Source: an uncultured Candidatus Saccharibacteria bacterium (GTDB taxonomy: Bacteria; Patescibacteriota; Minisyncoccia; Phycocordibacterales; UBA9973). Taken from it: a stretch of 64,000 nt of DNA. Position 1 is the first letter of the stretch. Every line of letters begins with the position of its first letter. Made by a program: the position numbers and the translations under genes. Positions 2,335 to 56,562 of this stretch are shown piece after piece. Under the pieces are notes generated by a model. That model saw only the letters and a list, made by a program, of their open reading frames with translations, searched no databases and was not told the origin of the DNA. The stretch spans positions 27,379 through 91,378 of the forward strand of contig CAZNJI010000004.1 in NCBI GenBank assembly GCA_964573395.1, written 5' to 3'.

Positions 2335-3525
<1,191 letters not shown>

Positions 3526-6754: not shown

Positions 6755-7186
6755 ATGGAATTTTTGAAAAGAAAAAATGTTTTTATTACTTCTTTAATTT
6801 TGGTTGCACTATTTGTGTTGCTTGGTCTTATAATGAGATCTAGTCAGTGTAAACTAGATTCGGTATGTAGTTCTTTATATTGGAGTGAATTTTGGAGCGA
6901 AAAACTTCCAACTATTCTATTTGTTTTAATAATCTCAATTTTTCCTTTCTCTACCCTTACTCTTTTTGCTCCAAATAATGCCTTTGATCGCTGGAAACGA
7001 TTTGCAGTATGGGCAGTTCCTATTCTGGCCTTGCTTACATTACCTATCATAAAAGCGCTTTCTGGTGATTGGCTTGATGTTGCAACTCCAACTCTTGTCT
7101 TTCTCTACGGCATTTATTTTATTATTTCTCTTGCCATTATCATCCGCGCATGGAGAAAGGAACGAAAGCTAAAAAATAATCCTTAG
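6755..7186 (+). CDS. Hypothetical polytopic membrane protein (143 aa)
   Basis: Three to four hydrophobic helices and a good RBS (AAAAGG). Confidence 0.5.
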   Translation: MEFLKRKNVFITSLILVALFVLLGLIMRSSQCKLDSVCSSLYWSEFWSEKLPTILFVLIISIFPFSTLTLFAPNNAFDRWKRFAVWAVPILALLTLPIIKALSGDWLDVATPTLVFLYGIYFIISLAIIIRAWRKERKLKNNP

Positions 7187-32766: not shown

Positions 32767-34539
32767 ATGGAAAAATATAAGACTGAATGGGATTTAGCTC
32801 TCCTCTATAAAAGCGATAATGATCCGCAAATCGAAAAAGACATGCAGACAATTGAAAAAGCATGTGCCGATTTTGAGAAAAAATATCGGAACAAAGACTT
32901 TACCTCAACTCCAGAAAAACTTCGAAAGGCTTTAGAGGATTCAGAAGCGCTCAGTAAAAAAATAATGGGACATAAGCCATGGTGGTATTTCATGCTTCGA
33001 TCTCATATGGACTCAGAAAATAGCGTAGCAAAGGCCATGGTAACACAATTTGAACAGCGTCTTACAAAATCATCCAACAAAATAACTTTTTTTTCACTAA
33101 AAGTTGCTGCGATTCCTAAAAAAGACCAAAAGAAATTTCTCACCAATTCTTTACTTAAGCCATTTAAATATAATCTTGAGCATTCATTTGAAAATGCAAA
33201 ATATAACTTGACTGAGGCGGAAGAAAATATGGCTAGCCTGTTTTCACAAACCAGTTATTCAATGTGGGTAAGCGCACAAGAGAAAAGTTTATTCCAGCAG
33301 TTAATTGATTTTAAAGGAGAAAAGATTCCCGTCTCTAAAGCAAGAGAATTACTCGCCGATCTTCCCAAAAAGGACCGTCATGAGTTATATAAAAAAATCA
33401 CTGACACACTTAAATTTGTTAGTCAATTTGCCGAAGCCGAAATAAACGCAATATGCAATTATAAAAAAGTACTCGATGAAAAGCGTGGATATAAAGAACC
33501 CTACAGTGCTTCGGTTATTGGTAATGAAAATACAGAAAAAGAAATTGAATTGCTCGCATCTGTCGTTACTAAATATTTTTCAATTAGTCATCGGTTTTAT
33601 AAATTACACGCAAAACTTCTTAAAGAAAAAACGATAACCAGAGCAGATGCAAGTGCAAAAATCGGAGAGATAAAAAAGAAATTTAATTTCCCTGAAATGG
33701 TTAAGGTTATTAATAATGCTTTTGAAAAAGTTGGGCCATGGTATGTCGACATGTTCAAAAAATATTTAACCCAAGGACAAATTGATGTATATCCACGGAA
33801 AGGAAAATACTCAGGAGGGTATCACTGGAAAACCGGCAGTAATCCTTCTTTTATTTTACTTAACCATGTTGACAGTATTAGATCAGTAGAAACACTGGGA
33901 CATGAGATGGGACATGCTTTTCATGGCGAGCTGAGTCAATTGCAGCCTCCGCGCTATCAAGATCATCCATCTTCAACGGCAGAAGTGGCGAGTACGTTTT
34001 TTGAACAGATTGTTACCGACGAAATTGAAAATATTCTTTCCGATAAAGAGAAAATTATTATGACTCATAGTAAATTGGCGCGCGATATCCATACTATTTT
34101 TACTCAAATTGCTTGCTTTAATTTTGAAACAGACCTGCATAAAAAAATTAGAGGAAAAGGACAGCTCTCAAAAGATGAAATAGCAGAATTAATGGGAAAA
34201 CACTTAAAGGCATACACTGGCCCAGCTATGAAAATTAATTCTGATGATGGATATATTTTTGTTTCTTGGATGCATCTGAGAATGTTTTTCTATACGTATA
34301 CCTATGCATATGGACATATCATAAGTAAGGCAATGTATGAGTGCTGGAAAAAAGATCGTTCTTTTGAATCAAAAGTAAGAGAATTTCTCAGTGCTGGAAG
34401 TTCAATGAGTCCTCGAGATATCTTTAAAAAAATTGGAATTGACATTAACGATCCAAAGTTTTTTGAGTCAGGACTTAAAGCCATTGATGCTGATATCACT
34501 AAGCTTGAAAAACTAGCAAAGAAAAACGGGCTGATTTAA
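32767..34539 (+). CDS. pepF: Oligoendopeptidase F, M3B family
   Basis: Zinc motif HEMGHAFH plus a downstream Glu; 590 aa. Confidence 0.85.
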   Translation: MEKYKTEWDLALLYKSDNDPQIEKDMQTIEKACADFEKKYRNKDFTSTPEKLRKALEDSEALSKKIMGHKPWWYFMLRSHMDSENSVAKAMVTQFEQRLTKSSNKITFFSLKVAAIPKKDQKKFLTNSLLKPFKYNLEHSFENAKYNLTEAEENMASLFSQTSYSMWVSAQEKSLFQQLIDFKGEKIPVSKARELLADLPKKDRHELYKKITDTLKFVSQFAEAEINAICNYKKVLDEKRGYKEPYSASVIGNENTEKEIELLASVVTKYFSISHRFYKLHAKLLKEKTITRADASAKIGEIKKKFNFPEMVKVINNAFEKVGPWYVDMFKKYLTQGQIDVYPRKGKYSGGYHWKTGSNPSFILLNHVDSIRSVETLGHEMGHAFHGELSQLQPPRYQDHPSSTAEVASTFFEQIVTDEIENILSDKEKIIMTHSKLARDIHTIFTQIACFNFETDLHKKIRGKGQLSKDEIAELMGKHLKAYTGPAMKINSDDGYIFVSWMHLRMFFYTYTYAYGHIISKAMYECWKKDRSFESKVREFLSAGSSMSPRDIFKKIGIDINDPKFFESGLKAIDADITKLEKLAKKNGLI

Positions 34540-38576: not shown

Positions 38577-38644
38577 ATATAAAGTAAAACATGAAGTTGT
38601 GAATTATTCCAACCTTGGCTAGAATCAGTGTCAGTTCTTTCGAT

Positions 38645-38718
38645 GGGAGTATAGCTCAGTTGGTTAGAGCATCGAGCTTATACCTCGAGGGTCGATGGTT
38701 CGAGTCCATCTACTCCCA
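38645..38718 (+). tRNA. tRNA-Ile with anticodon UAU (reads AUA); CCA not encoded
   Basis: Cloverleaf folded by hand. Acceptor GGGAGTA/TACTCCC; D-stem GCTC/GAGC. Anticodon stem TCGAG/CTCGA with loop CTTATAC, so anticodon TAT. T-arm GATGG-TTCGAGT-CCATC. Discriminator A. Confidence 0.8.
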
Positions 38719-38829
38719 CCCGTTTGGATGCATTATCTGAAGGCTTACCTGACCTTTATCCACAAGCAGGATTCTGGCATCTGGTTTCTCTGTGGACTTT
38801 CGTATCTCTACTGCGATACAATAAAGGGC

Positions 38830-41800
38830 ATGAACAAATATATAGGGGCACTATTATCAGCAGGTTTTTTCTTGTTAATCATTGGTTTCGGCGTCGTTCC
38901 AGCTCACGCGCAAACAACTACGCCTTTTACTACTAATCTCTCGATCGGCTCAACCGGCCCCGAAGTACTCAAGCTGCAGCAGTGGCTCAATGCAAACGGC
39001 TTCGTTGTTGCCCAATCCGGGCCTGGTTCTCCTGGGAACGAAACAAGCAGCTACGGACGGGCAACTGCGAATGCGGTGCTGAAATTCCAAGAAGCGCACT
39101 TCTCGCAGATTCTTGCCCCGCTTGGCATCTCAAAAGGAACTGGCAGATTTGCCGCCGCAACCAGAAACTACCTGAATTCTCTTTTGGGAGGAATGGTGTT
39201 AGGGGAAACAACTGAATCGTTCCTGGCATCTGCCGGCACTCCTGCAGGAATTGAAGACAATACCTCTTCGTTGGAGATCGGCATGAAGTTCACTCCGAAT
39301 GTTTCTGGAAAGATTACCGGCGTTCGCTTCTATAAAGCGTCAAACAACTACGGCACGCACACCGGAACGCTCTGGGGTTCGAACGGCTCGCGCCTTGCTA
39401 CTGGTACCTTTACCAACGAAACGAGCTCTGGCTGGCAAACCCTTACCTTCGATGCTCCTGTTTCTGTTACTGCCGGCACAACGTACACTGCCTCGTACTT
39501 TGCGCCACAGGGAAGATACTCGTTTACCTGTAACTACTTCACTTCTCCTCGAACCGTGGGTAATATTTCTACTCCAACATCTGCCGGCGTTTACCGATAC
39601 GGATCATCCTCTGCATTTCCAAGCCAGACCTTTAATTACTGCAACTACTGGGTAGACGTGGTTTTTGTAACCGGATCAACTGATCCGGCTCCTACGCCAA
39701 CACCTACCCCGACACCAACACCTACTCCAACTCCGACACCTTCAGGAACGGTATCTCTGTGGTCAAATAGCACCACGCCAACGCTCGTTACCGACATTCA
39801 GGCATACCCGGTTGAACTCGGAATAAAATTCAGCACTACCGTTCCGGGAACGATTACCGGCATTAAATACTATAAAGGTCCGCAGAATACCGGCACTCAC
39901 ACCGGAACGCTCTGGAGCAGTAATGGATCAAAACTTGCAAGCGTCACGTTCACGAACGAAACCAGCTCGGGCTGGCAGACGGCGCTCTTCTCGAATCCGG
40001 TATCAATTCAGGCAAACACGACATATGTCGCTTCCTACTTTACCCCGGTCGGATTCTTCTCAGTTGACATGAATTATTTCACCGCTTCCCGATCGTTTAA
40101 TACCTACTTCAATACTTCGGTTGGAGCTGGCGTATTTAAATACGGATCCGCAGGTTTCCCAACCACGACCCTCTATTCTAATTACTGGGTAGACGTGCTC
40201 TTCGTGCCAAGCACTGGCGGAACAACTCCACCTCCACCACCTCCGCCAAGTAATGACACCAGTTCTCCAACCGTTTCATTGACTGCTCCGGGAAACCGAT
40301 CGACGGTAAGCAACACGGTTACCGTTTCAGCGAGCGCCTCTGACAATGTGGGGGTTGCCGGCGTACAGTTCCGAGTGGATGGCAACAATATTGGTGGAGA
40401 AGATACGGTTGCACCGTACGTAATAGATTGGGATACCCGAAGCATTGCGAATGGACGGCATTACCTAACCGCGGTTGCGCGCGATGCAGCAGGAAATACC
40501 CGAACCTCAAGCCAGCGCCGCGTTACGGTAAGTAACACCACCACGACTCCTCCATCTAGTGATACGACTGCACCAACCGTTTCAATTACCGCTCCGGCAA
40601 ATGGCGCAACAGTTTCTGGAACGACTACCGTTTCAGCGAGCGCCTCTGATAATATGGGCGTAGTAGGCGTACAGTTCAAGTTAAATGGTACGAACCTCGG
40701 CCTTGAAGACACCAGTTCGCCATACTCAACTTCATGGAACACGACCGGTGCGGCAAACGGAACTTATACCCTTACCGCAACTGCGCGCGATGCGGCAGGA
40801 AATACCAGAACGACAAGTGCTGTTTCGATTACCGTGAATAACGTTGTGACGCCGCCAGCTGACACAACCAATCCAAGCGTCTCATTTTCTGCTCCAGCAA
40901 GCGGTGCAACGGTAAGCCTTGCGACTACCGTCTCGGCAAACGCTTCCGACAATGTCGGTGTTGCGAGCGTCCAGTTCTTGGTTGATGGCGTTAGTATCGG
41001 AGAAGACACTACTGCGCCATATTCAGTTTCATGGATTACCACGACAACTACGAATGGCTCGCATACCCTTTCGGCAATTGCTCGCGATGCGGCAGGAAAC
41101 ACCGCAACCGCAACTCGATCGGTAACGGTTAACAATGCAACTGCTTCGAACGATACGACTCCGCCGGTCGTTACCATGCTAACGCCGATTAATAACAGCA
41201 CCGTATCGGGTACTGCTCTCGTTACCGCTTCGGCAACCGATAACATTGGCGTGGTAGGCGTACAGTTCAAACTAAACGGCCAGAATCTTGGTTCTGAAGA
41301 CACTACGCTTCCATATGAATACTCATGGAACACCAGCGACTATGCGAATGGTTCATACACGCTTACCGCAACCGCTCGCGATGCGGCAGGAAACACGAGA
41401 ACAGCGCCTGGATTCGGAATCAACGTATCGAACGGAACTGTACCGCCGCCAACCGGAGGGAGCAGTTTTACCTTTACCCAAATTCCTTACTCAGATCCTG
41501 ACATCATCGCGCCAGGACGCGGAGCGGAACAGTGGCACAATAGTACTGCGCGAATTCCGAATCCAACCGAGAGCCAATCACGAACAACCGAGAACTCGCT
41601 TGACGTGTACTACCGATTCGAATGGGCAAGAATTGAAGGGGCAACCCAAGGTTCATACAACTGGACGTACTTCGATAACTTAATACGAGGTGCAATTAAC
41701 AACGGACAGAAATTCTCGTTCGGTATCATGACTCACTACAGCGACGGCGGATATGTTTCATATGACGGTGGTACCTCTTCTTATCCACAGTATCTGCACA

Positions 41801-42924
41801 ACATGATGCAAGCTGAGAGTCCGAAAGATTGGCGCAGCTCTAACGGCGTGTGGGTGCCAAACTGGAATAGTCCAAGCTACCTCAACCGATTAAGAGCGCT
41901 GCACGAAGCACTCTATGCACACATCATGAATACCTCTTACACTCCTACGACAGGACCGCGTGCAGGACAAAGCATTCCATTCAAAGATGCTATCTATGCA
42001 ATCGATATCCGCGGATTCGGTAACTGGGGCGAATGGCACACCGGAGACATCGTTGACTGGAATGCACACCCAGCAGGAACCGCGCCAACTATCGCAACAC
42101 TCAAAACGATTATCGATCACCACACACAAGTATTTAAAGATTGGCCGCTTGTATTCATGGTTGCTGGCTATGATGGTGGTGCTACTGGCATTTCACTCTT
42201 CCCTCCATACCCAGAAGTTGCGTACTATGCGCTTACGGCAAAGAACGCCTGGGGTGACGTTGGATTCCGCCGCGACCAATGGGGTGCAACTGACAGCTAC
42301 CTCCATACGCTCATGGCAGGAAACAATAAAACATACAATGGATCAGTGCCATTTAAGACACTCATTCTCAACAAGTACAAGACGGCACCGATTACTGGCG
42401 AGCCGATGCCTGCAAGCCTCGACATGGCTGACCTTGAAAACCAGGTAAATACCTACCATGCTACCTCGTTTGGAAATGGAAACTACGGAGCATACCCAAG
42501 TTCACAAACAACACGAGACAGAATTCGAGCAGCGTTCAAACGGGCTGGATACCGACTGATCCTTGAAGGAGGAAGCGTTGGAAACATCAGTCGCGGTTCG
42601 GCATTTTCGATCAGCTTAGACTGGAAAAACGTTGGAATTGCGCCAACATACGAAAACTGGGTTCCGACGTACGAGCTGAAGAATTCAAGCGGTACCGTTG
42701 TTTGGTCAGGAACTTCAAGCTTTAATCCGAAACTCTTCCTTCCGGAAAGCGGCACGAAGAAGGTAACGGACAGCTTCGTTGTTCCAACATCAGTACCGGC
42801 AGGAACCTATACGCTTTCGTTGAAAGTGAAGGATCCAGCAAACTACCGCCAGCCGCTTCCGCTCGCTATCCAGGGAAGACAGTCTGATGGAAGCTACGTC
42901 TTGAAGAGCGTAACCGTGCAGTAG
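38830..42924 (+). CDS. Large secreted multi-domain surface protein (1364 aa): PG-binding domain, two paralogous beta domains, PT linker, five Ig-like repeats, C-terminal glycoside-hydrolase-like domain
   Basis: Signal peptide MNKYIGALLSAGFFLLIIGFGVVPAHA. PG_binding_1-like segment (GSTGPEVLKLQQWLNANGF...ATANAVLKFQ). Two homologous ~150-aa domains (GVRFYKASNNYGTHTGTLW / GIKYYKGPQNTGTHTGTLW). (PT)n linker. Five ~100-aa repeats (SASASDNVGV.GVQF..DG...G.EDT..PY...W.T....NG.H.L.A.ARDAAGNT). C-terminal region with NWGEWH. Confidence 0.7.
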   Translation: MNKYIGALLSAGFFLLIIGFGVVPAHAQTTTPFTTNLSIGSTGPEVLKLQQWLNANGFVVAQSGPGSPGNETSSYGRATANAVLKFQEAHFSQILAPLGISKGTGRFAAATRNYLNSLLGGMVLGETTESFLASAGTPAGIEDNTSSLEIGMKFTPNVSGKITGVRFYKASNNYGTHTGTLWGSNGSRLATGTFTNETSSGWQTLTFDAPVSVTAGTTYTASYFAPQGRYSFTCNYFTSPRTVGNISTPTSAGVYRYGSSSAFPSQTFNYCNYWVDVVFVTGSTDPAPTPTPTPTPTPTPTPTPSGTVSLWSNSTTPTLVTDIQAYPVELGIKFSTTVPGTITGIKYYKGPQNTGTHTGTLWSSNGSKLASVTFTNETSSGWQTALFSNPVSIQANTTYVASYFTPVGFFSVDMNYFTASRSFNTYFNTSVGAGVFKYGSAGFPTTTLYSNYWVDVLFVPSTGGTTPPPPPPPSNDTSSPTVSLTAPGNRSTVSNTVTVSASASDNVGVAGVQFRVDGNNIGGEDTVAPYVIDWDTRSIANGRHYLTAVARDAAGNTRTSSQRRVTVSNTTTTPPSSDTTAPTVSITAPANGATVSGTTTVSASASDNMGVVGVQFKLNGTNLGLEDTSSPYSTSWNTTGAANGTYTLTATARDAAGNTRTTSAVSITVNNVVTPPADTTNPSVSFSAPASGATVSLATTVSANASDNVGVASVQFLVDGVSIGEDTTAPYSVSWITTTTTNGSHTLSAIARDAAGNTATATRSVTVNNATASNDTTPPVVTMLTPINNSTVSGTALVTASATDNIGVVGVQFKLNGQNLGSEDTTLPYEYSWNTSDYANGSYTLTATARDAAGNTRTAPGFGINVSNGTVPPPTGGSSFTFTQIPYSDPDIIAPGRGAEQWHNSTARIPNPTESQSRTTENSLDVYYRFEWARIEGATQGSYNWTYFDNLIRGAINNGQKFSFGIMTHYSDGGYVSYDGGTSSYPQYLHNMMQAESPKDWRSSNGVWVPNWNSPSYLNRLRALHEALYAHIMNTSYTPTTGPRAGQSIPFKDAIYAIDIRGFGNWGEWHTGDIVDWNAHPAGTAPTIATLKTIIDHHTQVFKDWPLVFMVAGYDGGATGISLFPPYPEVAYYALTAKNAWGDVGFRRDQWGATDSYLHTLMAGNNKTYNGSVPFKTLILNKYKTAPITGEPMPASLDMADLENQVNTYHATSFGNGNYGAYPSSQTTRDRIRAAFKRAGYRLILEGGSVGNISRGSAFSISLDWKNVGIAPTYENWVPTYELKNSSGTVVWSGTSSFNPKLFLPESGTKKVTDSFVVPTSVPAGTYTLSLKVKDPANYRQPLPLAIQGRQSDGSYVLKSVTVQ
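40255..41440 (+). repeat. Five tandem ~300-bp coding repeats (Ig-like domain array) inside the 1364-aa gene
   Basis: Repeated protein motif seen five times; the DNA repeats are diverged. Confidence 0.7.
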
Positions 42925-46912: not shown

Positions 46913-47392
46913 TTAGCAGGTGCACACGCCTTTGATGCAATCACATCCTGGTTTGCAGTTGCACTTCTCGCCATGGATGGAGCAGACGCCGTTTTTGCAG
47001 TCAGCGCAGTGCGCTCCGCCGTGCCTGCAGGCGTGGCAGCTGCACCAGCTTGATCGAAGGTATGAACCAACCCATACCAGGAAGAGGGCACCGCCGGCAA
47101 TCAGGCCGCTCATGCCAAGCATTAATTCAACTGCCACTGCGCCGCCAAGGACGCTGCTTGCAGCAAGAATGGCAAAGCGGTGCGTTTTAGGAATCCAGAG
47201 GAGGACGGTAAGAAGTATTTCAACGACGCCGAGCGCTACGCGGTATTGATCGATGCCGAGTGATTGAAACAGAATTGTTTCCTGGGAAGCGCCTGAAATT
47301 TTCCCGAAGCCGTTAATGAAGAGTAGAAGCGTGGGAAGTGCCAATACTATGCTGCCAATGATTTTTTTTGCCGAATGGGTGCCTAATGTCAT
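46913..47392 (-). CDS. DoxX-family membrane protein fused to a Cys-rich metallothionein-like tail
   Basis: Four TM helices. C-terminal CSCHACRHGGAHCADCKNGVCSIHGEKCNCKPGCDCIKGVCTC carries 14 Cys in 42 aa. Confidence 0.6.
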   Translation of the reverse strand: MTLGTHSAKKIIGSIVLALPTLLLFINGFGKISGASQETILFQSLGIDQYRVALGVVEILLTVLLWIPKTHRFAILAASSVLGGAVAVELMLGMSGLIAGGALFLVWVGSYLRSSWCSCHACRHGGAHCADCKNGVCSIHGEKCNCKPGCDCIKGVCTC

Positions 47393-47491
47393 GCGAATAT
47401 ATGTAATTGATAGATAATGACTTATTGTAGCATTTTCGGCAGTCGATAGAAAAAAGCGCTTTTTTATGTTAGAGTTTGCCGGAATATATAT

Positions 47492-47581
47492 GGAGACGTG
47501 GCTGAGCTGGTCGAAAGCGCCTCACTGCTAACGAGGTAAGCCCGTTAAACGGCTTCGAGGGTTCGAATCCCTCCGTCTCCG
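47492..47581 (+). tRNA. tRNA-Ser(GCU) with a long variable arm; CCA not encoded
   Basis: Acceptor GGAGACG/CGTCTCC; D-arm GCTG-AGCTGGTCGAA-AGCG; anticodon loop CTGCTAA, so anticodon GCT; variable arm TAAGCCCGTTAAACGGCTTC; T-arm GAGGG-TTCGAAT-CCCTC; discriminator G. Confidence 0.85.
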
Positions 47582-48006
47582 CAAAGTCTTGAGCGAAGTG
47601 AAAGCTTTGCAGAGACGAGCAAAACAGGGTTTTGCGTGGGGGATTCGAACGACGGAGGCAATTGAGTATTCAAGAGAATACGAAGCCGAGTCGGTGCCCA
47701 GACTAACATTTTCGGGCGAGAAAATTTAAGTCGCGGGCGAATCCTCCGTCTCCGCCAACCCCCGACCCCCATGTTGGACACCTTCGATTTCCAACGCTAT
47801 CGCTGCCTTCCACCACAGGGGTTGGCGACAATCGCACAATGAGGCGCGATTGCGGAGACGGTGACATACTTGAGTATGTCACGGGAGGGATTCGAAAAGC
47901 GCAGCGATGTTTTGCGAGCCAGCAAAACCGCGAGCTGGGGTCGAGAAATTTTAAGAGCGACGGCGAATAAAATATTCGTGACCGAATATTCCCCCGTCTC
48001 CGCCAG
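47582..48006. repeat. Array of direct and inverted copies of the tRNA-Ser 3' end (att-scar-like repeats)
   Basis: Direct copies GGCGAATCCTCCGTCTCCGCCA at 47737-47758 and CGAATATTCCCCCGTCTCCGCCA at 47983-48006, each preceded by CGAGAAA(A)TTT(T)AAG. Minus-strand copy at 47855-47903, where GCGGAGACGG-TGACATACTTGAGTATGTCAC-GGGAGGGATTCGAA reverse-complements to the T-loop and acceptor end with a 22-bp palindrome inserted. Scrambled inverted fragment TGGGGGATTCGAACGACGGAGG at 47637-47660. Confidence 0.8.
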
Positions 48007-48084
48007 TACAGATTTCTTGACATTAGTTTTTATATATGATACAAAAATATTGAAAAAGCTTTTTCTAAAATTAAATTTTTAATT

Positions 48085-48306
48085 ATGCAAAAAAAGACGA
48101 ACACCCGTTTTAAAGACAATGATTTCAAGAAAGGAACGGGTAGTGACGGTAAGCCCTTTTGCTGTGTAATGGTCGCTCGTGATAAAGATGGAGTGGCTGT
48201 TCGTGACAGTAAGGATTCGAAAAAAAACACCCTTCACTTTAATAACAAGGAATGGGAAGTTTTTCTTCAAGCCATCAAGGATGGAGAATTTGAAGTAGTG
48301 AAATAA
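48085..48306 (+). CDS. DUF397-domain protein (73 aa)
   Basis: FKKGTGSDGKPFCCVMVARDKDGVAVRDSKDSKKNTLHFNNKEWEVFLQAIKDGEFE matches the DUF397 signature (..RDSKDP....L.F...EW.AF...VK.GEFD). This is a family mostly known from actinomycetes. Confidence 0.65.
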   Translation: MQKKTNTRFKDNDFKKGTGSDGKPFCCVMVARDKDGVAVRDSKDSKKNTLHFNNKEWEVFLQAIKDGEFEVVK

Positions 48307-48361
48307 TTTCTGATTTTAGAAAGTAGTTAATCACTACTTTCTTTTTTATTAAAAAAATATT

Positions 48362-48859
48362 ATGCATCAAAAAGATAAAAAACTTTATATTATTCCAGGA
48401 TACCGAGAATCTACTAGGAAAAAACCCTATAGACAGATAGCAGCCCTTGGGTTAAAGAAAAAATATAAAATCATTAAGATAAATCCAAAATGGAACGTAT
48501 CGTTAGTATCACAAATCGTTCCTGTGGGTAAGAATGATGTTATTTTTGGTTTTTCTCTCGGGGGTATTCTTGCTCTTTTGATTGCTCAAAAATTTGCTTG
48601 TAAAAAAGTAATACTTGCTTCTGCTACTACGCATAAATGTGCTAATGATTTAAAAACATTTCTACCTGCTGATATCATAAAAGATATTAGAAAAACAAAG
48701 AAAAATGTTGCAAGTAAGGTAATTAGGTTCTATGGAGAGTTCGAACGAGAGGATGCAATAAAATACTTACCGGAAGGTGCTTCTATACAGAAATTTATTT
48801 CAAAAACTGAGCACAATCTATCCGAGGCTTATATTGATGCTATTGATAAGGTACTTTAA
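48362..48859 (+). CDS. Small alpha/beta-fold serine hydrolase (RBBP9/YdeN-like esterase)
   Basis: Nucleophile elbow VIFGFSLGGILAL is a GxSxG motif; ~165 aa; very AT-rich gene. Confidence 0.5.
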   Translation: MHQKDKKLYIIPGYRESTRKKPYRQIAALGLKKKYKIIKINPKWNVSLVSQIVPVGKNDVIFGFSLGGILALLIAQKFACKKVILASATTHKCANDLKTFLPADIIKDIRKTKKNVASKVIRFYGEFEREDAIKYLPEGASIQKFISKTEHNLSEAYIDAIDKVL

Positions 48860-48996
48860 AAATTCTGAAAATAAATTTAACTTCGTACATATAGAGTCAA
48901 TAGTAAAAACTACCCATCTCTAATAAAAAATACTCGTTTGATTTCACACATAAAAAATCAAAAAAATCAGGGAAATATACTATACTATAAGGAACC

Positions 48997-51900
48997 ATGA
49001 GACGAATCCGCTCCGGCATATTTCGGCGTTACCGAATGACCATTCTCGGTTTGCTTGGAGCATTCCTTTTTTCGGCCATCATCTCATTTGCCGCTCCACC
49101 CAGCTCACCATACACTCCCGGAGAAACGCTTGATCCAACCTGTGCGCCGGGAGACGCGAATTGTTACGTTGAAAGTTCAAGCGGAGATTCTTTTTATACC
49201 GATGATGGCGCGCTAACTGGAAACAGAGCAATCGATTTAGATGGCAACACACTTAGTTTTACTGGCGGAACGGTTTTAATCGGCGGAACACCAACGTTTT
49301 CCGGCTTCTCAACAAATGGCGGGCTCCTTTATACAAACGGCTCCGGCGTCGTCTCACAAACAGGCGCAGGCACTGCCAACCAAGTGCTCCACGGCGGAAT
49401 CAATCCGACATACTCAGCAGTCTCGCTTTCTGCTGATGTTTCTGGTGATCTGCCGTTTGCAAACCTCGCCCAGATTACCGGCCTTTCAGTATTAGGTGTT
49501 ACCGGAACCAGCACCGCTGATGTTGCGGCAATTACCGGTACGGCAAATCAGGTGCTTCGCATTAATGCAGGCGGAACAGCGCTTGGTTTTGGCACGATAG
49601 CAAATGCAGGGCTTGCAAACTCCTCAATTAGTTTCGCGACCGGAACTTCAGGTACTAACGTGAACTGGTCTTCATCTCCCGTTTCTCTGGGCGGAACGGC
49701 AACCTTAAATATCCCCGATGCTAGTGCTTCGGCGCGAGGCTTGGTAACAACAACCGGCACGCAAACCTTTGCTGGAGACAAAATCTTTACCAGTGAAGTG
49801 GCAGTTGGCACCGATTTGGTAGACGGCCGATTCCAAGTAAGTTCTGCGGAGGGAAATTACCTGCGCATAGACAACGACAACGGAATTTACGGAATAGGAG
49901 ATCTCAGCGGCCTCTATAATGGCAGTTACTTTCAGATTGATGATGCTAATCACGAGATAGACCTTTGGGTTACCGGAGAAGTAACTGAAAATAATTTTGA
50001 AATTGGTGATGGGTATGGAGGTTTTTCTAGCTACTATCAAAATGGAACCGTAACAGCATCAAGCGAGTATTATTTGGAGGCACTTGGCGGAATTACTATT
50101 AGTTATGATTATGAAGATACGAATACAACTCAAGTTATAGATTCCGGCCTCCGTTTTGATGGAAATTTTATTGAGCTAAAAACAGAAGAAAATTATGATA
50201 ACGGAGCCGAAGTATCTTATGCTGGTCTTATGCTCAATCAAGCTTGGGCAGAGCTTGGTGCAAGTTATGAATTTAATAATTACGACTATGATGCAACGAT
50301 CCAAACCTCAAATGGTGGTACCGAGCTCTATTCTTCTCGAGAGTACAATGGAGAAACTGAAGCATTTTCAGAACTGAGCCTCAGACCTGATATTTCAGAA
50401 ATGATAACTCCTCGGTTAGGTATTGTGGGCACCTATGCCTATAACGACACGCTTCCGTTTCAAGACGCTCAGGTTGCAATTCTTGGCGGATTGGGGCCGG
50501 AAGAGATTACGAACGGCACTTTCACCGGCAATGCCAATGGATGGGTAACGGGAGGAGATGACGATACGCTTCCTTCTGATAACTGGGCGTATGGCACCAA
50601 TAATGCACAGCATACTCCCGGGGAAGATGTTGTTCTTCGCCAAGATGGTGAGCTGGTATACGGAGAAACATATAAAGCTCAATTTACTATTGGCGGCACA
50701 ACCGGTTGGGTACAGGTATGTTTGGGTGAGAACGGCGACTGTGCAGAGTTTGATGCAGGAGACGGTTCGGTAACTTTTACGGGAAGTTGGGAGGCGCTGA
50801 CCAGCAGTAAGATACTTTTTTACCCATCATCCGATTTCGACGGCACGATCGACAATGTGTCGGTAAAGCGCGTGTTCTCTAACCGGCATGCTGCGCTTGA
50901 TGTGCAAGGGAAAACCAACCTGCAGAATTTGGCGATATCAGGCACCGCCCTTGGCGATTTATATGGTGCCGAATTGATAACGAACGGAACCTTTACGGCT
51001 AATACAGATGGCTGGCAAACGGAAGATCCAGGGGGCGGTAATCCGGAAGCGCTTGATTCAAAAGGTTGGGCATATGATAACCGGGGATGGGTTGAATTTG
51101 ATTCGGGTACGCAACAATCAAATTACCTGACCCAAGTCATAGATTTGACTGAAGGCGCCCAATACCGTGTTTCGATAAAGGTACAAGATGGAGACGGAAG
51201 AGTATACGTAGCGCTTGGAGGGGATAATGATGCAAATTATATCGAGCTTAGTGGAGAGAGTGGTATTACTACTGTAACGCTTACTGCTGGCGCGGGTGAT
51301 TTTCTCTGGATTGTTCCTGACACGGACAATAACGGCGATTGGTTTAGTGGTTTTATTGATGAAGTATCCGTAAAAGAGGTTACCGGAGAAGCGGCGCTGA
51401 GTGTTACTGGCAACACCGTGCTACATAGTTTGGCCGGAAACGGGAGCGGTTTTGTTTCGGTTGATAACGATGGCGTGCTTTCGTGGAGTGCAGGCGGAGC
51501 CGGCGGGGTGGGGGGTAGCAATACGCAGCTGCAATTCAACGACGATGGCAACATGGCTGGCGCAACTGATGTTCTCTATAGTAAAGGAGCTTCCGGTAGT
51601 TCAGGCGATTCATTGGGCGACGAAGAAATAACTAATGGCTCTGTTACTGGAAATACAAATGGCTGGACGGCCATTAATGGCGACCCACTCCCAGCGAACA
51701 ACTGGTCTTATGGCAGTAACAACCTTAATTACGACCCAAACGGAGGAAACCCAGTTGCACAACTAGGAGAACTTGTGGAAGGAGCAACCTACAGAATTAC
51801 ATTTACAGTAACTGGAACTGCTGGAACAATAAGCGTAAGACTCGATGGTGACATTGATGCTGAATATGCTTATAACGCCGGCACAGTAACACTAGATAAA

Positions 51901-54735
51901 ATCTATGGATTCGATAACGGTACGAAAATTGTTTTTTCTCCATCAAATGATTTTGATGGAAATCTTGATGATATCTCAGTAAAAAGAGTTAATCTTGAAG
52001 AGGGTGCAGAGCAAATTACGAATGGCACCTTTACCGGCAATGCTGATGATTGGGAGTCGAATGGTAATCCGCTTCCTGACGGAAACTGGGCATATGGCAG
52101 TAATAATGTAGAGCACACCTCAGGTTCTATAGAACCTGTCTATCAATTCGGAAACTTGGTTGAAGGTGGAAGGTATATTGTTCGGTTTGATATTGGAGGA
52201 ACTACTGGAAGCGTTAATGCTTGTCTAGGCAACGGCGATTGTGAACAATTTGCTGCAGGCGATGGGTCAGTGGAATTTTTAGGTCACTGGCAAGATCTTT
52301 TTGGTATTTCAATCTATTTTGAACCAACTACTGATTTTGACGGCACGATTGACAATGTTTCAGTAAAACCAATTCTCTATGAGGAAGGCAGTGAAGAGTT
52401 AACGAACGGCACCTTTACTGGCAATGGGGATGATTGGGTCACAGATACTAATGATGTTCTTCCTTCAAATGATTGGGCCTATAGCAGTAACAATGTCGAG
52501 CATACTGCAGGTACTGCAGTTCGGTTTAGACAGGATGGAGAATTAACACAAGATGGTCACTATATCGCTCGGTTTAATATTGGAGGAACAACAGGAACGG
52601 TTGAGGCATGCTTGGGAGAGAACGGAGACTGCTTCGAAGTTAGTGCCGGAGACGGGGATGTAACATTTATTGGAACATGGAGAGCGATATTAAGCAGTAA
52701 AATATTATTTGATCCATCAAGTGATTTTGACGGTACCATCGATAATGTGTCAGTAAAAAGCATCACCTATTCTGCTAGTGAGACTACTACTACTAGCCAG
52801 GCAAAATTCGGCATCGGCTATACCGATATTGCAGAATTTACGAGCGCAAAAGTTTCAGTGAGCGGGCTTGGCGACGAAGAGTTGACGAATGGGAAGTTTA
52901 CCGGCAACGCAACTGGATGGGACCTCGGATCAAATTGGGATTATGACGATAACACTGTTGTGCACGACCCGGTTGGAGAGACTATTCTTTCTCAGGACGG
53001 AAGTTTAACTGATGATGTTACCTATCATGTCAGTTTTACAATGACAGGAACTGACGGGATAGTTACGGTTTATTTGGATGAAAGTGCTTCGTATACGTTC
53101 ACAGGAGATACCAATGGTACAACAAGAACGTTTTCATTTACGCATACTTATGACGATTCGAGTGCTCTCGATACAGAAATAATTGTATTTTTTCCCGATA
53201 GTGATTTTGACGGTACGATAGACAATGTCTCAATTCGGGAGGTTCTAAATTCAGATTCAATCAATGCAATCGGAAACATTGCTATTAAAGGAGAGTTAGA
53301 CGTAGAACATAGAGTTACCCAAGATGCTGATTTATACGGCGTGCGAAGCGAGGTATCTCTTAATGATACGGATAATGGAAGCTTGAATTATCAGTACGGA
53401 GGCTACTTTAGTGCCACAAGCTTGGGAGAAGTAGGTTCGTACGGCGTATACGCAGTATCGGAAACTGATGGCGAGATAAGCGTCGGCGTATACGGGCGAG
53501 GCGCACGCGGCGTTCATGCGGTATCAACGTCAGATGATGCCGGCGCGGCTCTGTACGCTGAATCAATCAATGGGCCAGTTTTATACGGAGAAACTGCAAG
53601 AGTGGCCGCAACAGGAGAAGTTTTTCCAGCATTGTATGTACAGAATACGGGAACGTTTGATACTACTGCAGAGGAACTTATTTCCTACGGTGCGGTTCTT
53701 GATACCACTACCACTCGATCTGCCGGTGCAAATGATTTAATTAATATCGGATTAGCGATTTCCGTGAGTGGAGGCCAGGAAAATTACGCGCTCATAACTA
53801 CTGGCGGTAATGTTGGTATTGGAAATAGTACTCCCAATGTGCTACTCCATGTGGGAGATGATTCAGTAACAGATTTCACTGATTTGCTTACCCTAGAAGA
53901 CGAAGACTCAATTTGTAGTTTCAATGCTGATTCTGGTTCGCCAACATGCGGATCTGATTTGACGCTGAAAAAAGACATCGAAAGCTTGAATACGGTCGAC
54001 ATCCTGATGAAAGTTTCGCTCTTGAACCCTGTGTCATATCGCTGGAAGACGGATGAAGAGGGCAAGCCAGTACAGTTCGGATTCATTGCCCAGGAAGTAG
54101 AAGAGCAGTTTCCGGAGCTGGTAACCGAACGCGAATGGATAGACGGCAGTACGAAAAAATTCCTCAACATTGGCGGGCTGATGCCATATGCGATCGGTGC
54201 CATAAAAGAGTTGAATTTGAAGGTAGCGAATATTGAAAATATTTCTGCGCCCGAAAACTCGTTCGCGGCGATATTGAAAGCGTGGTTTGCCGATGCGGCA
54301 AATGCGATTGAAGAATTCGTAGCAACGAGAATTAAAGCTCGCGAAACATTCTGCATCAATGAAACCTGTTTGACTGAAACGGAATTGAAAGCACTGCTTG
54401 AAAATGCCGGTATTGCAATTCCGCCGCCGGCAGTTACTGAATCGGAAAATAACGAAGCACCTGAAGAAGAAATGCCCGAACCTACGCCGAGCGAGACAGA
54501 AACTGAAACCGAAGACCTTGTGTCTCCAGTAGAAAATCCGCCTACCGAAGAACCAATAGAAGAAGAGTTATCTGACGGGCCAGTCGAAGAGTCTGGCACT
54601 CCTCTGGAGCAACCGGTGGAGGAATATACAGAAGATACGCCAACTCCTCCAGAGAATTCTCCTGAACCAGAACCAGGTGAACAAGAAGAAAGTAATTCTG
54701 GAGAGACGCCAGCAGTTCCTCCGGCTACTCCGTAA
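48997..54735 (+). CDS. Giant surface protein (1912 aa): N-terminal TM anchor, Gly/Thr-rich fibre-like region, six tandem ~125-aa beta-sandwich modules, C-terminal S74-type intramolecular chaperone domain, acidic Pro/Glu-rich tail
   Basis: N-terminal TM helix. Six modules with the pattern EE.TNG.FTGN..GW...........W.Y......H.........Q.G.L......Y...F...GTTG.V..CLG.NGDC..F.AGDG.V.F.G.W........I.F.PS.DFDGTIDNVSVK. C-terminal LTLKKDIESLNTVDILMKVSLLNPVSYRWKTDEEGKPVQFGFIAQEVEEQFPELV matches the peptidase-S74 chaperone domain of phage tail fibres. Confidence 0.75.
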   Translation: MRRIRSGIFRRYRMTILGLLGAFLFSAIISFAAPPSSPYTPGETLDPTCAPGDANCYVESSSGDSFYTDDGALTGNRAIDLDGNTLSFTGGTVLIGGTPTFSGFSTNGGLLYTNGSGVVSQTGAGTANQVLHGGINPTYSAVSLSADVSGDLPFANLAQITGLSVLGVTGTSTADVAAITGTANQVLRINAGGTALGFGTIANAGLANSSISFATGTSGTNVNWSSSPVSLGGTATLNIPDASASARGLVTTTGTQTFAGDKIFTSEVAVGTDLVDGRFQVSSAEGNYLRIDNDNGIYGIGDLSGLYNGSYFQIDDANHEIDLWVTGEVTENNFEIGDGYGGFSSYYQNGTVTASSEYYLEALGGITISYDYEDTNTTQVIDSGLRFDGNFIELKTEENYDNGAEVSYAGLMLNQAWAELGASYEFNNYDYDATIQTSNGGTELYSSREYNGETEAFSELSLRPDISEMITPRLGIVGTYAYNDTLPFQDAQVAILGGLGPEEITNGTFTGNANGWVTGGDDDTLPSDNWAYGTNNAQHTPGEDVVLRQDGELVYGETYKAQFTIGGTTGWVQVCLGENGDCAEFDAGDGSVTFTGSWEALTSSKILFYPSSDFDGTIDNVSVKRVFSNRHAALDVQGKTNLQNLAISGTALGDLYGAELITNGTFTANTDGWQTEDPGGGNPEALDSKGWAYDNRGWVEFDSGTQQSNYLTQVIDLTEGAQYRVSIKVQDGDGRVYVALGGDNDANYIELSGESGITTVTLTAGAGDFLWIVPDTDNNGDWFSGFIDEVSVKEVTGEAALSVTGNTVLHSLAGNGSGFVSVDNDGVLSWSAGGAGGVGGSNTQLQFNDDGNMAGATDVLYSKGASGSSGDSLGDEEITNGSVTGNTNGWTAINGDPLPANNWSYGSNNLNYDPNGGNPVAQLGELVEGATYRITFTVTGTAGTISVRLDGDIDAEYAYNAGTVTLDKIYGFDNGTKIVFSPSNDFDGNLDDISVKRVNLEEGAEQITNGTFTGNADDWESNGNPLPDGNWAYGSNNVEHTSGSIEPVYQFGNLVEGGRYIVRFDIGGTTGSVNACLGNGDCEQFAAGDGSVEFLGHWQDLFGISIYFEPTTDFDGTIDNVSVKPILYEEGSEELTNGTFTGNGDDWVTDTNDVLPSNDWAYSSNNVEHTAGTAVRFRQDGELTQDGHYIARFNIGGTTGTVEACLGENGDCFEVSAGDGDVTFIGTWRAILSSKILFDPSSDFDGTIDNVSVKSITYSASETTTTSQAKFGIGYTDIAEFTSAKVSVSGLGDEELTNGKFTGNATGWDLGSNWDYDDNTVVHDPVGETILSQDGSLTDDVTYHVSFTMTGTDGIVTVYLDESASYTFTGDTNGTTRTFSFTHTYDDSSALDTEIIVFFPDSDFDGTIDNVSIREVLNSDSINAIGNIAIKGELDVEHRVTQDADLYGVRSEVSLNDTDNGSLNYQYGGYFSATSLGEVGSYGVYAVSETDGEISVGVYGRGARGVHAVSTSDDAGAALYAESINGPVLYGETARVAATGEVFPALYVQNTGTFDTTAEELISYGAVLDTTTTRSAGANDLINIGLAISVSGGQENYALITTGGNVGIGNSTPNVLLHVGDDSVTDFTDLLTLEDEDSICSFNADSGSPTCGSDLTLKKDIESLNTVDILMKVSLLNPVSYRWKTDEEGKPVQFGFIAQEVEEQFPELVTEREWIDGSTKKFLNIGGLMPYAIGAIKELNLKVANIENISAPENSFAAILKAWFADAANAIEEFVATRIKARETFCINETCLTETELKALLENAGIAIPPPAVTESENNEAPEEEMPEPTPSETETETEDLVSPVENPPTEEPIEEELSDGPVEESGTPLEQPVEEYTEDTPTPPENSPEPEPGEQEESNSGETPAVPPATP
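50500..53245 (+). repeat. Six tandem ~375-bp coding repeats (putative carbohydrate-binding beta-sandwich modules) inside the giant gene
   Basis: The EE(I/L)TNGTFTGN...DFDGTIDNVSVK unit recurs six times. Confidence 0.75.
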
Positions 54736-54743
54736 ACTTGCGC

Positions 54744-55415
54744 TTACTTTTCAAGCGGCGCATGCGCCAATGCGAATCCGATCGATCGCTTTGCTCCCGC
54801 CATTTCAAGCGCTTTTCGGGCGGCAGAGAGCGTTGCTCCGGTAGTTACCACGTCATCAACGCATATATACATAGTGCGAGGGTTCGTTTCTGCGCCAAAC
54901 GAAAATATCTGCTCCATGTTCCGAAGCCGCGCTTCGCGATTTTGCATTTTGGTCTGCGGCAACGCCTGCTTCGTTTTTTGCAGAGCGTTTTGAATCGATA
55001 TATGTTCAAACGGCAGCGTTTTCTTGAGCGCTTTTGCGATGACGAGCGATTGGTTGAATCCGCGCGCCCGGCCGTGCTGTGTGCTGGCAGGAATCGGAAC
55101 AAGAACGATGCGCGTACCTGCATCCGTTTCCATCCGTTCATCGAGATGGCTAATGAGCACGTCGCCTGCAAGGCGGGAAAGCAGCCGTGCGCCTTGGGTG
55201 CGATGGCGGTACTTCAAATCGTGGATGCAGGTTTTTATGAGCGTGTCCCGATAGGAGAAAGCGCCCAAAACGCCAGGTATGCCGGTTTCCCGCGCCGGTG
55301 CTAATCGAGCGCTGCAGGGAGAGCAAAGATAAAAGCCATGCCTACCGCAACCGAGGCACTTTGGCGGAAAGAGAAAATCGAGGAGGCGGCCGAGCATAGA
55401 AGAAGCACGATGCAT
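54744..55415 (-). CDS. comF: ComF-family protein (competence protein F / phosphoribosyltransferase-like)
   Basis: N-terminal Cys4 motif (CLGCG...CSPC) and C-terminal PRTase motif YICVDDVVTTGATL. Start taken at the internal Met (MHRASSM) because the ORF-track start would overlap divergent pilM. Confidence 0.7.
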   Translation of the reverse strand: MHRASSMLGRLLDFLFPPKCLGCGRHGFYLCSPCSARLAPARETGIPGVLGAFSYRDTLIKTCIHDLKYRHRTQGARLLSRLAGDVLISHLDERMETDAGTRIVLVPIPASTQHGRARGFNQSLVIAKALKKTLPFEHISIQNALQKTKQALPQTKMQNREARLRNMEQIFSFGAETNPRTMYICVDDVVTTGATLSAARKALEMAGAKRSIGFALAHAPLEK

Positions 55416-55434
55416 AGCGTATACTATAACAATA

Positions 55435-56562
55435 ATGGAAAAACTGATTTCGGCAATGAAAAGAATGTTTGCCTTCGGAGGAGGCGATAATAATGTCGCC
55501 ATTGGCATTGATATTGGCACCTCTTCAATCAAAGTAGTGCAAATCAAAAAAGAGGGAGGCCGGGCAGTGCTCGATACCTATGGTGCGCTCGCGCTTGGCC
55601 CGTATGCAGACGAAAAGGGAATGATCGGCCAGGTAACGAATCTCTCTCCCGAGCAGCTTGCCCGGGCGCTGAAGGACGTACTGCGGGAAACGAACATTAC
55701 GAGCAAGAATGCGGTGCTCGGCATTCCATCCATTTCATGCATCATTTTCATCATCCAGCTGCCGGCAGTCATCAATGAATCCGAATTTGCGACCGTCATT
55801 CCAAACGAAGCGAAGAAATTCATTCCGGTTCCGCTTTCTGACGTCACGCTCGATTGGTACGTGATTCCGCGCCGCGAAGACTCGAGTACGCAGGTTGACG
55901 CGCTTGCCGCCAGCGGCGGAGAGCTGAAAGTTTCCATTCTGGTCGTCGCGACGCTCAATGATACGCTGGTGAAATACACGAGCACGCTCCAAAAAACAGG
56001 GCTGCCGGTCGATGCGCTTGAGATTGACGTTTTTTCAAGCATCCGCTCGATCCTCTCACGGGAACTTTCGCCGGTACTGCTCATGGACATTGGCGCATCG
56101 AAAACAAAGCTCGCAATCGTAGAGCATGGCATCGTTGAGACGTTCCATTTGGTAAACAAAGGAGGGCAGGACATTACCCTTGGCATTGCGCGGAGCTTGG
56201 AAATTCCGTTCGATCGGGCTGAAGTAATTAAAAAAGAGCACGGGCTGGTGCCGGGAACGGATTATCCGAAGCTTCCCGAGATCATCAAGGGCCAACTGGC
56301 AACCATTATTACGGAGACGAACACCATTTTGCTCGCGTACGAGAAGCGCTATAACAAAAATGTCTCGAAGGTCATCTTTACGGGGGGCGGCGCGCTGACT
56401 CGCGGCATCTTTGAATATGCGCGAGAGCAGTTTTCAGCAGAAGTAGAGCTGGCAAATCCGTTCTCGAAGGTTGATGCGCCGGTATTTTTGCAAGGCGTGC
56501 TCAAAGCAACTGGCCCTGAGTTTGCCATTGCCATCGGATTGGCGCTGAAGCGGCTGCAATAA
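55435..56562 (+). CDS. pilM: Type IV pilus assembly protein PilM (actin-like ATPase)
   Basis: VAIGIDIGTSSIKVVQIK start and actin/FtsA-like fold motifs; followed by pilN/O-like genes. Confidence 0.85.
   Translation: MEKLISAMKRMFAFGGGDNNVAIGIDIGTSSIKVVQIKKEGGRAVLDTYGALALGPYADEKGMIGQVTNLSPEQLARALKDVLRETNITSKNAVLGIPSISCIIFIIQLPAVINESEFATVIPNEAKKFIPVPLSDVTLDWYVIPRREDSSTQVDALAASGGELKVSILVVATLNDTLVKYTSTLQKTGLPVDALEIDVFSSIRSILSRELSPVLLMDIGASKTKLAIVEHGIVETFHLVNKGGQDITLGIARSLEIPFDRAEVIKKEHGLVPGTDYPKLPEIIKGQLATIITETNTILLAYEKRYNKNVSKVIFTGGGALTRGIFEYAREQFSAEVELANPFSKVDAPVFLQGVLKATGPEFAIAIGLALKRLQ

Follow-up and report, generated by a model that had tools for sequence, protein, structure and literature searches.

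Several kinds of described system come close to parts of a single locus in the 64-kb window studied here, by which we mean the whole 64,000-nucleotide stretch of contig CAZNJI010000004.1. The locus is the gap between a tRNA-Ser gene and a comF gene, and it contains two structured elements, two small genes (for a DUF397-family protein and a serine hydrolase) and a giant gene for a fibre-like protein. Domains of the S74 type, known from phage tail fibres and tailspikes (K1F endosialidase, T5 L-shaped fibre, GA-1 neck appendage) and from eukaryotic MYRF, are intramolecular chaperones that cleave themselves in a trimer-dependent manner, thereby releasing the C-terminal domain. Islands targeted to tRNA and tmRNA genes, together with their integrase-less derivatives (cis-mobilizable elements, tandem accretion), carry direct repeats of the 3' end of the target gene. 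DUF397 proteins have been described as found only in Actinobacteria and linked to conflict systems (PMC7159879), with CxE and RDS (VAVRDSK) as conserved motifs (PMC7159879, PMC10294661). They were predicted to be the toxins of XRE/DUF397 pairs (PMC2701414). The Streptomyces pairs that were studied are described as regulators (PMC10294661), and those that were tested are presented as controlling antibiotic production and differentiation and not as toxin-antitoxin (TA) systems (PMC6262351, PMC10364602).

A sequence-only reading had taken positions 48007-54735 for one genomic island of horizontally acquired genes, preceded by an array of attachment-site (att) scars. Next to a tRNA gene whose end is repeated, a sharp drop in GC resembles a textbook island, but here it appears to resolve into independent pieces. 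The gap probably holds three independent things side by side: structured elements, an AT-rich mobile cassette and a giant fibre gene (Table 1).

An AT-rich cassette next to structured elements

The reported drop in base composition was confirmed, and it is confined to about 48010-48990. The 1-kb bin 48001-49000 has a GC content of 0.307, the lowest of 64 bins (next lowest 0.354, most 0.43-0.53). In 200-nt windows GC lies between 0.255 and 0.405 from 47900 to 48999, against 0.53-0.55 immediately upstream and 0.485-0.54 immediately downstream, and the trough ends sharply at the start of the giant gene. The latter has a GC of 0.46 (near the window average), a third-position GC (GC3) of 0.38 and a codon score of 0.015, which is low, although four other chromosomal genes score alike. 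The hydrolase gene shows both the lowest GC3 (0.22) and the worst codon-usage score of 51 window genes; GC3 is 0.39 for the DUF397 gene and 0.5-0.6 for the genes flanking the block. On a sliding-window calculation the AT-rich 1 kb is therefore compositionally foreign, whereas the giant gene is not set apart by its GC. Low GC by itself is not unique to the block, since a PepF-like oligoendopeptidase gene (32767-34539; GC 0.35, GC3 0.29) and a 143-aa open reading frame (ORF) at 6755-7186 (GC 0.34, GC3 0.25) are AT-rich as well.

The two small genes recur together elsewhere. A hydrolase with 82% identity (P0067) is encoded on a 14-kb contig (L084), contig 608286 of SRR24140713, with a DUF397 gene immediately upstream, and the pair is located there between NusA and a methyltransferase, a locus unrelated to that of the window. 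Window positions 48071-48859 correspond to L084 2988-3776 at 80.7% nucleotide identity (blastn), and the homology stops at the hydrolase stop codon. GC in the L084 cassette is 0.31-0.39 against 0.57-0.64 in its flanks. Along the alignment of window and L084, the TTGACA hexamer of the leader is in register, and the stem of the hairpin between the genes is preserved through a compensatory T-A to C-G double change. Judged from its sequence, the leader is promoter-like and may drive the cassette. The DUF397 and hydrolase genes thus form a self-contained cassette (about 48017-48860, ~0.85 kb), and only this segment, not a 6.7-kb island, behaves as mobile DNA. The promoter of the giant gene presumably lies in the AT-rich region behind it (48860-48996).

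The supposed array of att scars is, as far as alignment and folding indicate, two copies of a conserved, covarying structured element and not a set of passive scars. Copies of the tRNA-Ser 3' end are found at 47569, 47742 and 47990, three against 0.31 expected by chance. The two copies past the tRNA gene each close a hairpin-rich unit of ~150 nt; inverted copies are also present, and one unrelated match occurs at 40233. In copy A the 5' arm is complementary to the tRNA-derived 3' end, and the fold has an energy of -59.8 kcal/mol (z -4.8). Copy B folds with a z of -2.8, and the AT-rich block starts a few bases past it. The downstream half of a unit in L077 resembles copy B by eye, a likeness for which no alignment statistic was computed.

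Many relatives (the set is described below) carry, 40-400 nt behind a gene, one or two near-exact copies of the 3' end of that same gene. Nine such units were aligned and show 29 predicted pairs, 19 of them with compensatory changes. A covariance model (R1) built from these units gave about 40 matches at E<1e-3 in 1.4 Mb, both window units included. Most matches lie 20-50 nt downstream of a tRNA or tmRNA gene on the same strand: the element follows 13 of 34 tmRNA genes, 10 of 44 tRNA-Ser(GCT), 4 of 28 tRNA-Ser(ACT) and 2 of 62 tRNA-Ile(TAT) genes, and its 3' end matches the last 14 nt of the preceding gene, mostly with 0-3 mismatches. In the model-fitted alignment, which leans towards structure, 90% of the cells pair (63% in shuffles, ~48% with slid partners) and 338 double changes are seen (100 in shuffles). 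Members of the family are 110-260 nt long with a three-hairpin core, and both arms of the closing helix match the gene 3' end. They are patchy, tandem-forming in some cases and matched to their targets; further examples are L038 9026-9439, L033 6607-6742, L059 8554-8935, L034 8040-8289 and about 30 more. Rfam (15) returned only tRNA and tmRNA and left the elements unmatched, both at gathering thresholds on the window and in E-value mode on 47380-49000 and L038. A strand test (57 G.U against 40 A.C cells in paired columns) fits an RNA on the tRNA strand as well as a structure at the DNA level or on either strand.

Like the islands targeted to tRNA and tmRNA genes, these elements show direct repeats of the gene 3' end, occur in tandem and patchily, and have tmRNA, tRNA-Ser and tRNA-Ile as targets. 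Unlike such islands they are very short, nearly always empty and without an integrase seen nearby, and unlike att sites they possess a covarying core and a 5' arm complementary to the repeat. The sole unit seen to carry cargo is that of L027 (4401-7119), where a 2.5-kb segment lies between tRNA-Ser(ACT) and an element with an exact tRNA 3' end repeat. It contains three ORFs, none an integrase, one of which (220 aa) has an Rx4H (HEPN-like) motif by eye. A search for an integrase-bearing parent element found a single long-range repeat pair, again in L027 (2.6 kb), whose ORFs are not integrases. When IMG/VR was searched for exact occurrences of two motifs conserved in the elements, the only match was a chance one inside a coding region; this is a weak test, and it lends no support to the elements being phage attP arms. 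Plain duplicates of 58-60 nt, consisting of the T-arm and acceptor 3' strand without the structured core, follow tRNA-Ile(TAT) in L059 (18577-18634) and L051 (8463-8522), so that two kinds of tRNA-end repeat coexist in these genomes.

Nothing else at this locus is as novel as the element family, whose two window copies end immediately before the coordinates that had been flagged. The two window copies would be an independent neighbour of the cassette and the giant gene, belonging to a family that recurs after tRNA and tmRNA genes. One might go further and propose a previously undescribed class of integrase-less 110-260-nt elements targeted to tRNA and tmRNA 3' ends, acting as a structure- or RNA-guided insertion or landing module that also loads small cargo (the DUF397 and hydrolase cassette, the 2.5-kb segment of L027) beside tRNA genes in streamlined Patescibacteria genomes, a speculation to which we give a low probability.

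Table 1. Features of the tRNA-Ser/comF gap, with positions in the window (aa, residues of the giant protein)
Feature	Position	Strand	Basis or remark
tRNA-Ser(GCT), conserved left anchor of the gap	47492..47582	+	ARAGORN; Rfam tRNA 56.7 bits
Structured element, copy A	47609..47758	+	R1 37.8 bits, E 3e-6; 3' end 47742-47757 copies tRNA-Ser 3' end, then CCA
Structured element, copy B	47852..48006	+	R1 40.3 bits, E 7e-7; 3' end 47990-48005, more decayed copy of tRNA-Ser 3' end
Cassette leader: TTGACA -35-like hexamer (48017-48022) and AT-rich 5' UTR (untranslated region) of DUF397 gene	48017..48084	+	
DUF397-family small protein, 73 aa	48085..48306	+	Pfam PF04149, PHROG 10815
Terminator-like hairpin with T-run, between DUF397 and hydrolase genes	48318..48342	+	terminator scan
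Minimal alpha/beta serine hydrolase (predicted), 165 aa	48362..48859	+	AlphaFold2 (AF2) fold; Foldseek
AT-rich intergenic region, GC about 0.27, not common to L084	48860..48996	.	composition; alignment
Giant surface fibre protein, 1912 aa	48997..54735	+	Pfam S74, PHROG, AF2, Foldseek
N-terminal signal/anchor	aa 1-33, nt 48997-49095	+	basic stretch, ~20 hydrophobic residues, then AAPP
Fibre repeats common to homologues	aa ~60-300, nt 49174-49896	+	
Six CBM-like beta-sandwich modules	aa 498-1418, nt 50488-53250	+	repeat alignment, AF2, Foldseek
Fibre shaft	aa 1419-1650	+	
S74 chaperone/autoprotease	aa 1653-~1790, nt 53953-54366	+	
Pro/Glu-rich tail	aa 1791-1912	+	last 120 residues 27% Glu, 20% Pro
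ComF-family gene, conserved right anchor, divergent from pilM	54744..55547	-	longest ORF; start probably internal

The variable gap and the case for one island

Judged by its genes, the window is core chromosome: it contains EF-Tu, the S10/spc ribosomal protein operon, SecY, adenylate kinase, IF3, TruB, a copper ATPase, tmRNA, PepF, FtsH, RecG, a two-component system and a type IV pilus cluster (PilM, PilO, PilB, PilT-like, PilC, pilin). Relatives were collected by scanning a genome collection with RecG, which yielded 80 loci of up to 22 kb each, all from Patescibacteria metagenome-assembled genomes labelled Paceibacteria, Nomurabacteria or "Saccharibacteria" (54-61% RecG identity). The host is accordingly a Paceibacteria-like member of the Candidate Phyla Radiation, with a fairly high GC of ~47%; the organism occurs in samples SRR15237806 and SRR15237804. 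The genome scan gave no relative above 61% RecG identity, and exact-match look-ups with the DUF397 protein found only reads-level copies of the same organism and no closer relative.

The frame RecG-RR-HK ... PilM-PilN-PilO-PilB is kept in many of the 80 relatives (tblastn of window proteins). All 28 relatives examined have tRNA-Ser(GCT) inside the gap, and all 28 have a ComF homologue adjoining pilM and divergent from it. The gap from kinase to pilM (from RecG where the kinase match is absent) extends from 1.4 kb (L082, L021) up to 9.5 kb, and in the 28 relatives it is filled with unrelated genes. The DUF397, hydrolase and giant genes have no match (tblastn, E 1e-5) in the fetched loci of the 80 relatives, gap included, the sole giant-gene match being in L032 at another place than the gap. 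Comparison with the 28 relatives that keep the frame hence places the block in a truly variable chromosomal slot; a variable gap of this sort is ordinary for this bacterial group.

At the right-hand end, the ComF-family gene matches the pilM-adjacent gene of the 28 relatives (blastp, E 1e-19 to 1e-41) and TIGR00201 comF (6.7e-20). An ORF on the plus strand at 54738-55304, downstream of the giant gene, was rejected as spurious, as the minus strand encodes ComF there. At the left-hand end, tRNA-Ser(GCT) is adjoined in the loci of 30 relatives (range L003-L081; for example L038 9440-9526, L033 6480-6565 and L011 6256-6343) by a class-II tRNA with anticodon ACT (ACU, reading AGU) in varying orientation. 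A34 is unusual in bacterial tRNAs outside tRNA-Arg. No such gene is present within the 64-kb window.

Could everything from 48007 to 54735 nonetheless be a single tRNA-Ser-integrated island with three cargo genes, the upstream repeats being its att scars? We regard this as unlikely. The tRNA-Ser(GCT) gene does adjoin, ending 428 nt upstream of the AT-rich block, and the number of tRNA 3' end copies is well above expectation. However, all of these repeats lie upstream of the cargo, with no further copy as a matching att site after the AT-rich block or the giant gene, and they belong to a conserved structured family that is usually without cargo. The gene-carrying segment of L027, flanked on one side by a tRNA and on the other by an element with a direct repeat, speaks for an island; the 64-kb window has no integrase or recombinase family among about 44 ORFs scanned. 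Variability of the gap, and the absence there of all three genes in relatives, fit an island, as does the GC3 of the giant gene below that of its flanking genes; yet GC3 differs again between hydrolase and giant gene, composition is atypical only in 48010-48990 and not over the whole block, and the L084 cassette travels without the giant gene. The island and its att scars are therefore not upheld. The horizontally mobile DNA here is the cassette, foreign in composition and recurring at 81% nucleotide identity elsewhere; the giant gene has near-host GC, only its GC3 being lower.

The DUF397 protein and the hydrolase

Assignment of the first gene to DUF397 was correct: PF04149 matches at E 6.8e-10 (39.4 bits against a gathering cutoff of 24) over profile positions 5-55 of 55, and PHROG 10815 at 1e-10. 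The VAVRDSK(D) signature is present. The CxE motif of the family (CVEVA) reads C-V-M in the window protein and in P0002, with loss of the Glu; in the nearest relatives the position is CVE, CVA, CVQ or CVM. An exhaustive phmmer search recovered 371 cluster representatives (E<=1e-3), with identities of about 50-58% for the best of them. In 81 of the top 150, the content of Phe/Tyr/Ile/Asn/Lys exceeds that of Gly/Ala/Arg/Pro, so about half of these nearest representatives (Lys/Asn/Ile-rich) appear to have a composition unlike that of actinobacterial proteins. This suggests that the window protein belongs to an environmental, largely uncharacterized branch of the family. It is an orphan, as had been noted: neither in the window nor in L084 does an ORF for an HTH or XRE partner adjoin DUF397, and the same is true of L086 (whose gene is also present in L087 and in the 546-bp L083).

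The resemblance to the XRE/DUF397 (WhiJ/BldB-type) pairs of Actinobacteria (PMC10294661) is in PF04149 membership, the VAVRDSK motif and small size. Differences are the missing XRE partner, the non-actinobacterial host, CVM in place of CxE, and the pairing with a hydrolase here while the protein is solitary elsewhere. The window protein, being BldB-like, would act as a small oligomerizing binding or regulatory partner and not as half of an XRE/DUF397 pair.

The second gene had been read as a small GxSxG hydrolase, and the predicted fold agrees. Sequence profiles of alpha/beta-hydrolases match only below threshold (UPF0227 at 3e-3), but the AF2 model (pLDDT 82) shows alternating beta-alpha elements, and Foldseek places it with FphH, ABHD10, RBBP9 and YqiA (probability 1.00, TM 0.59-0.64). 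A nucleophile elbow GFSLGG (G-F-S65-L-G) follows strand 60-64. Ser65 and His151 are invariant in three hydrolase homologues, and D96, D104, D108 and D131 are invariant acidic candidates for the third member of the triad. The protein is thus predicted to be a minimal alpha/beta serine hydrolase. It shares its fold, the elbow and the invariant C-terminal His with YqiA/UPF0227, RBBP9 and S. aureus FphH, but it is shorter and its profile matches all stay below threshold. By analogy it may be an esterase or thioesterase-type enzyme, and it may interact with the DUF397 protein.

The pairing is not obligate, given that a 51%-identical hydrolase homologue stands alone in L085 and L086 has a solitary DUF397 homologue (64-70% amino-acid identity) whose neighbours are genes for a transporter and a pterin dehydratase. 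DUF397 homologues at this level of identity sit in GC-rich genes, and the one in L086 is a GC-rich spot in a 40%-GC contig. We regard the pairing as a minor new variant. A word-based homology search of 5.8 billion proteins yielded two DUF397 clusters and three hydrolase clusters. PADLOC gave no match at E<=0.1 for the DUF397, hydrolase or giant protein, and NCBIfam nothing meaningful for the three.

With a promoter-like leader, a DUF397 small protein, a terminator-like hairpin and a cytosolic hydrolase as its content, the cassette would move, or would have been moved, between genomes as a unit, probably out of a low-GC donor. Alternatively, the cassette could be native and vertically inherited, its low GC due to relaxed or expression-linked constraints and its position in L084 the outcome of a rearrangement within one lineage. 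Gene order is fluid in this group, other window genes are AT-rich too, and the hydrolase genes of window and L084 differ by a dS of 0.87 (dN/dS 0.11, purifying selection), indicating long separate histories. Nonetheless, a native origin is rather improbable: the cassette is missing from the fetched loci of all 80 relatives, its genes belong to very few clusters in the word search, it is AT-rich in two hosts that differ in GC, and homology ends exactly at its edges.

A number of points weigh against the explanation by three independent parts. At a dS of 0.87 the two cassettes are not recent copies of each other, and the lasting AT-richness could reflect selection or expression constraints instead of recent transfer. 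The L084 organism may be a relative of the host, in which case a rearrangement within one lineage is conceivable. Neither a mobility gene nor a target-site signature accounts for movement of the cassette. In L084 a single base missing from an A-run past codon 16 disrupts the DUF397 frame (2995-3225), whereas the hydrolase is intact; the cause may be genuine decay or a mistake of the assembly. The similar GC3 values of the DUF397 and giant genes would also allow these two to have arrived together. As the relatives share only 54-61% RecG identity, absence at the site tells little about a recent acquisition or the time of arrival, and comparison of the gaps cannot date or order insertions. Finally, functional statements on all three proteins rest on homology and predicted folds.

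It might also be argued that the DUF397 protein and the hydrolase form a TA or anti-phage defence pair, one neutralizing the other. The layout is suggestive (two genes in a mobile module, the smaller one leading and a leaky terminator separating them), and the literature offers both a predicted toxin role (PMC2701414) and a link to conflict systems (PMC7159879). We find this very doubtful, however, in view of the absence of a PADLOC match, the occurrence of each gene without the other, and a DUF397 gene that may be broken in L084 next to an intact hydrolase. Moreover, the tested Streptomyces XRE/DUF397 pairs are described as regulators and not as TA systems (PMC6262351, PMC10364602).

The giant fibre protein

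The third constituent of the three-part explanation encodes a phage-fibre-like protein, as had been suggested. Peptidase_S74 matches in full length (positions 1-58 of 58) at aa 1653-1710, with E 1.8e-15 and 57.4 bits against a cutoff of 22. The domain had been placed at the C-terminus; its presence was confirmed, but about 200 residues follow, and it is not at the extreme end. It starts with G-S1653-D-L-T-L-K1658, which fits the S-D-x-x-x-K Ser/Lys motif and aligns S1653 and K1658 with ADLRAK of MYRF (7dc3) and SDRRIK from the long tail fibre of a phage (6f45). Over aa 1444-1748 there are matches to tail-fibre families of PHROG (1.4e-13 and 5e-7).

Between the fibre repeats and the shaft lie six repeats of ~125 aa, defined from motifs and MAFFT, each running from E-E-I-T-N-G-x-F-T-G-N ... 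W to F-D-G-T-I-D-N-V-S-V-K. An AF2 model from the six-repeat alignment is all-beta (pLDDT 89). Foldseek in the PDB finds the carbohydrate-binding module (CBM) CBM16 (3.6e-5, TM 0.62) and also CBM29, CBM22, CBM4 and Vip3 domains, at a sequence identity of 13-21% to the solved CBMs. No CBM family of Pfam matches the repeats at E<=0.1, and a PDB sequence search with the whole protein found no match. The module is matched better by domains in large proteins that uncultured tailed phages encode (TM 0.74-0.82, rmsd 2.0-3.1 Å).

What the 61 homologues (1060-3308 aa) have in common is only the N-terminal anchor with fibre repeats (aa 8-300) and, towards the C-terminus, aa 1545-1900; where named, they are each a patescibacterial 'tail fiber domain-containing protein'. 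The surroundings of three homologues are chromosomal; one of the three has tandem paralogues and one lies beside a diversity-generating retroelement. In the latter (L091 6490-12173) a 1390-aa S74-terminated homologue lies directly downstream of bAvd and reverse transcriptase, so that hypermutation may be directed at some members of the class. The window is free of retroelements of this kind.

With the S74 proteins of phages and with MYRF the giant protein shares an above-threshold domain and the S-D-x-x-x-K motif, and with the phage fibres also the position of S74 after a long fibre region and the PHROG tail-fibre match. It differs from them in that its gene is cellular, with an N-terminal signal/anchor and no surrounding phage, and in that a 120-aa Pro/Glu-rich tail follows the chaperone and the central 900 aa consist of six CBM-like modules. 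Its overall plan is that of the giants of Patescibacteria (P0027, 2503 aa; P0036; P0013, Andersenbacteria): an N-terminal anchor, fibre repeats of ~65 aa, a middle part that varies and S74 towards the C-terminus, in chromosomal contexts. The best local alignment with any homologue covers <=18% of the window protein, and its six-module array is without a word-search match. It adds a new member to a known class of fibre proteins that is common in Patescibacteria. That it is instead the tail fibre of a decayed prophage, with the small genes as phage morons, is extremely improbable: despite the S74 domain, the PHROG and tailed-phage structural matches, the PHROG 10815 match of DUF397 and one weak actinophage hit to the same protein (tblastn, 42% identity, E 7e-3), no other phage gene occurs in 64 kb (the neighbours are RecG, the two-component system, ComF and the type IV pilus cluster), the signal/anchor is common to many cellular homologues, homologues have chromosomal, non-phage contexts, and an IMG/VR scan with DUF397, the only window protein so scanned, gave no relative.

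As an independent gene, it would encode a lineage-specific cell-surface fibre of which the signal/anchor exports and holds the N-terminus. By analogy with other S74 proteins, the chaperone would drive trimerization of the shaft and then cleave itself at Ser1653 through a Ser-Lys dyad (S1653/K1658), the Pro/Glu-rich tail leaving together with it. From what is established for S74 domains, the fibre would be trimeric and anchored, would lose its chaperone and would display 6 x 3 CBM-like modules; these may bind surface glycans, most likely those of a partner cell or a host.

Another surface protein of very large size is encoded in the window at 38644-42924 (1409 aa as listed; DUF4082 x2, Big_7 x4, PG_binding_1, DUF4832). 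Since this ORF begins inside tRNA-Ile(TAT) (38644-38721), its true start must be further downstream.

Summarizing, the cassette puts DUF397 outside Actinobacteria and outside XRE pairing, which bears on the function of BldB-like proteins. Should the family of elements linked to tRNA and tmRNA genes turn out to be a mobile or RNA element of a new kind, it would matter more than the block that was flagged. For the organism itself, six CBM-like modules together with a predicted self-cleaving chaperone would be a candidate means by which an episymbiotic Patescibacteria cell may bind the glycans of its partner.

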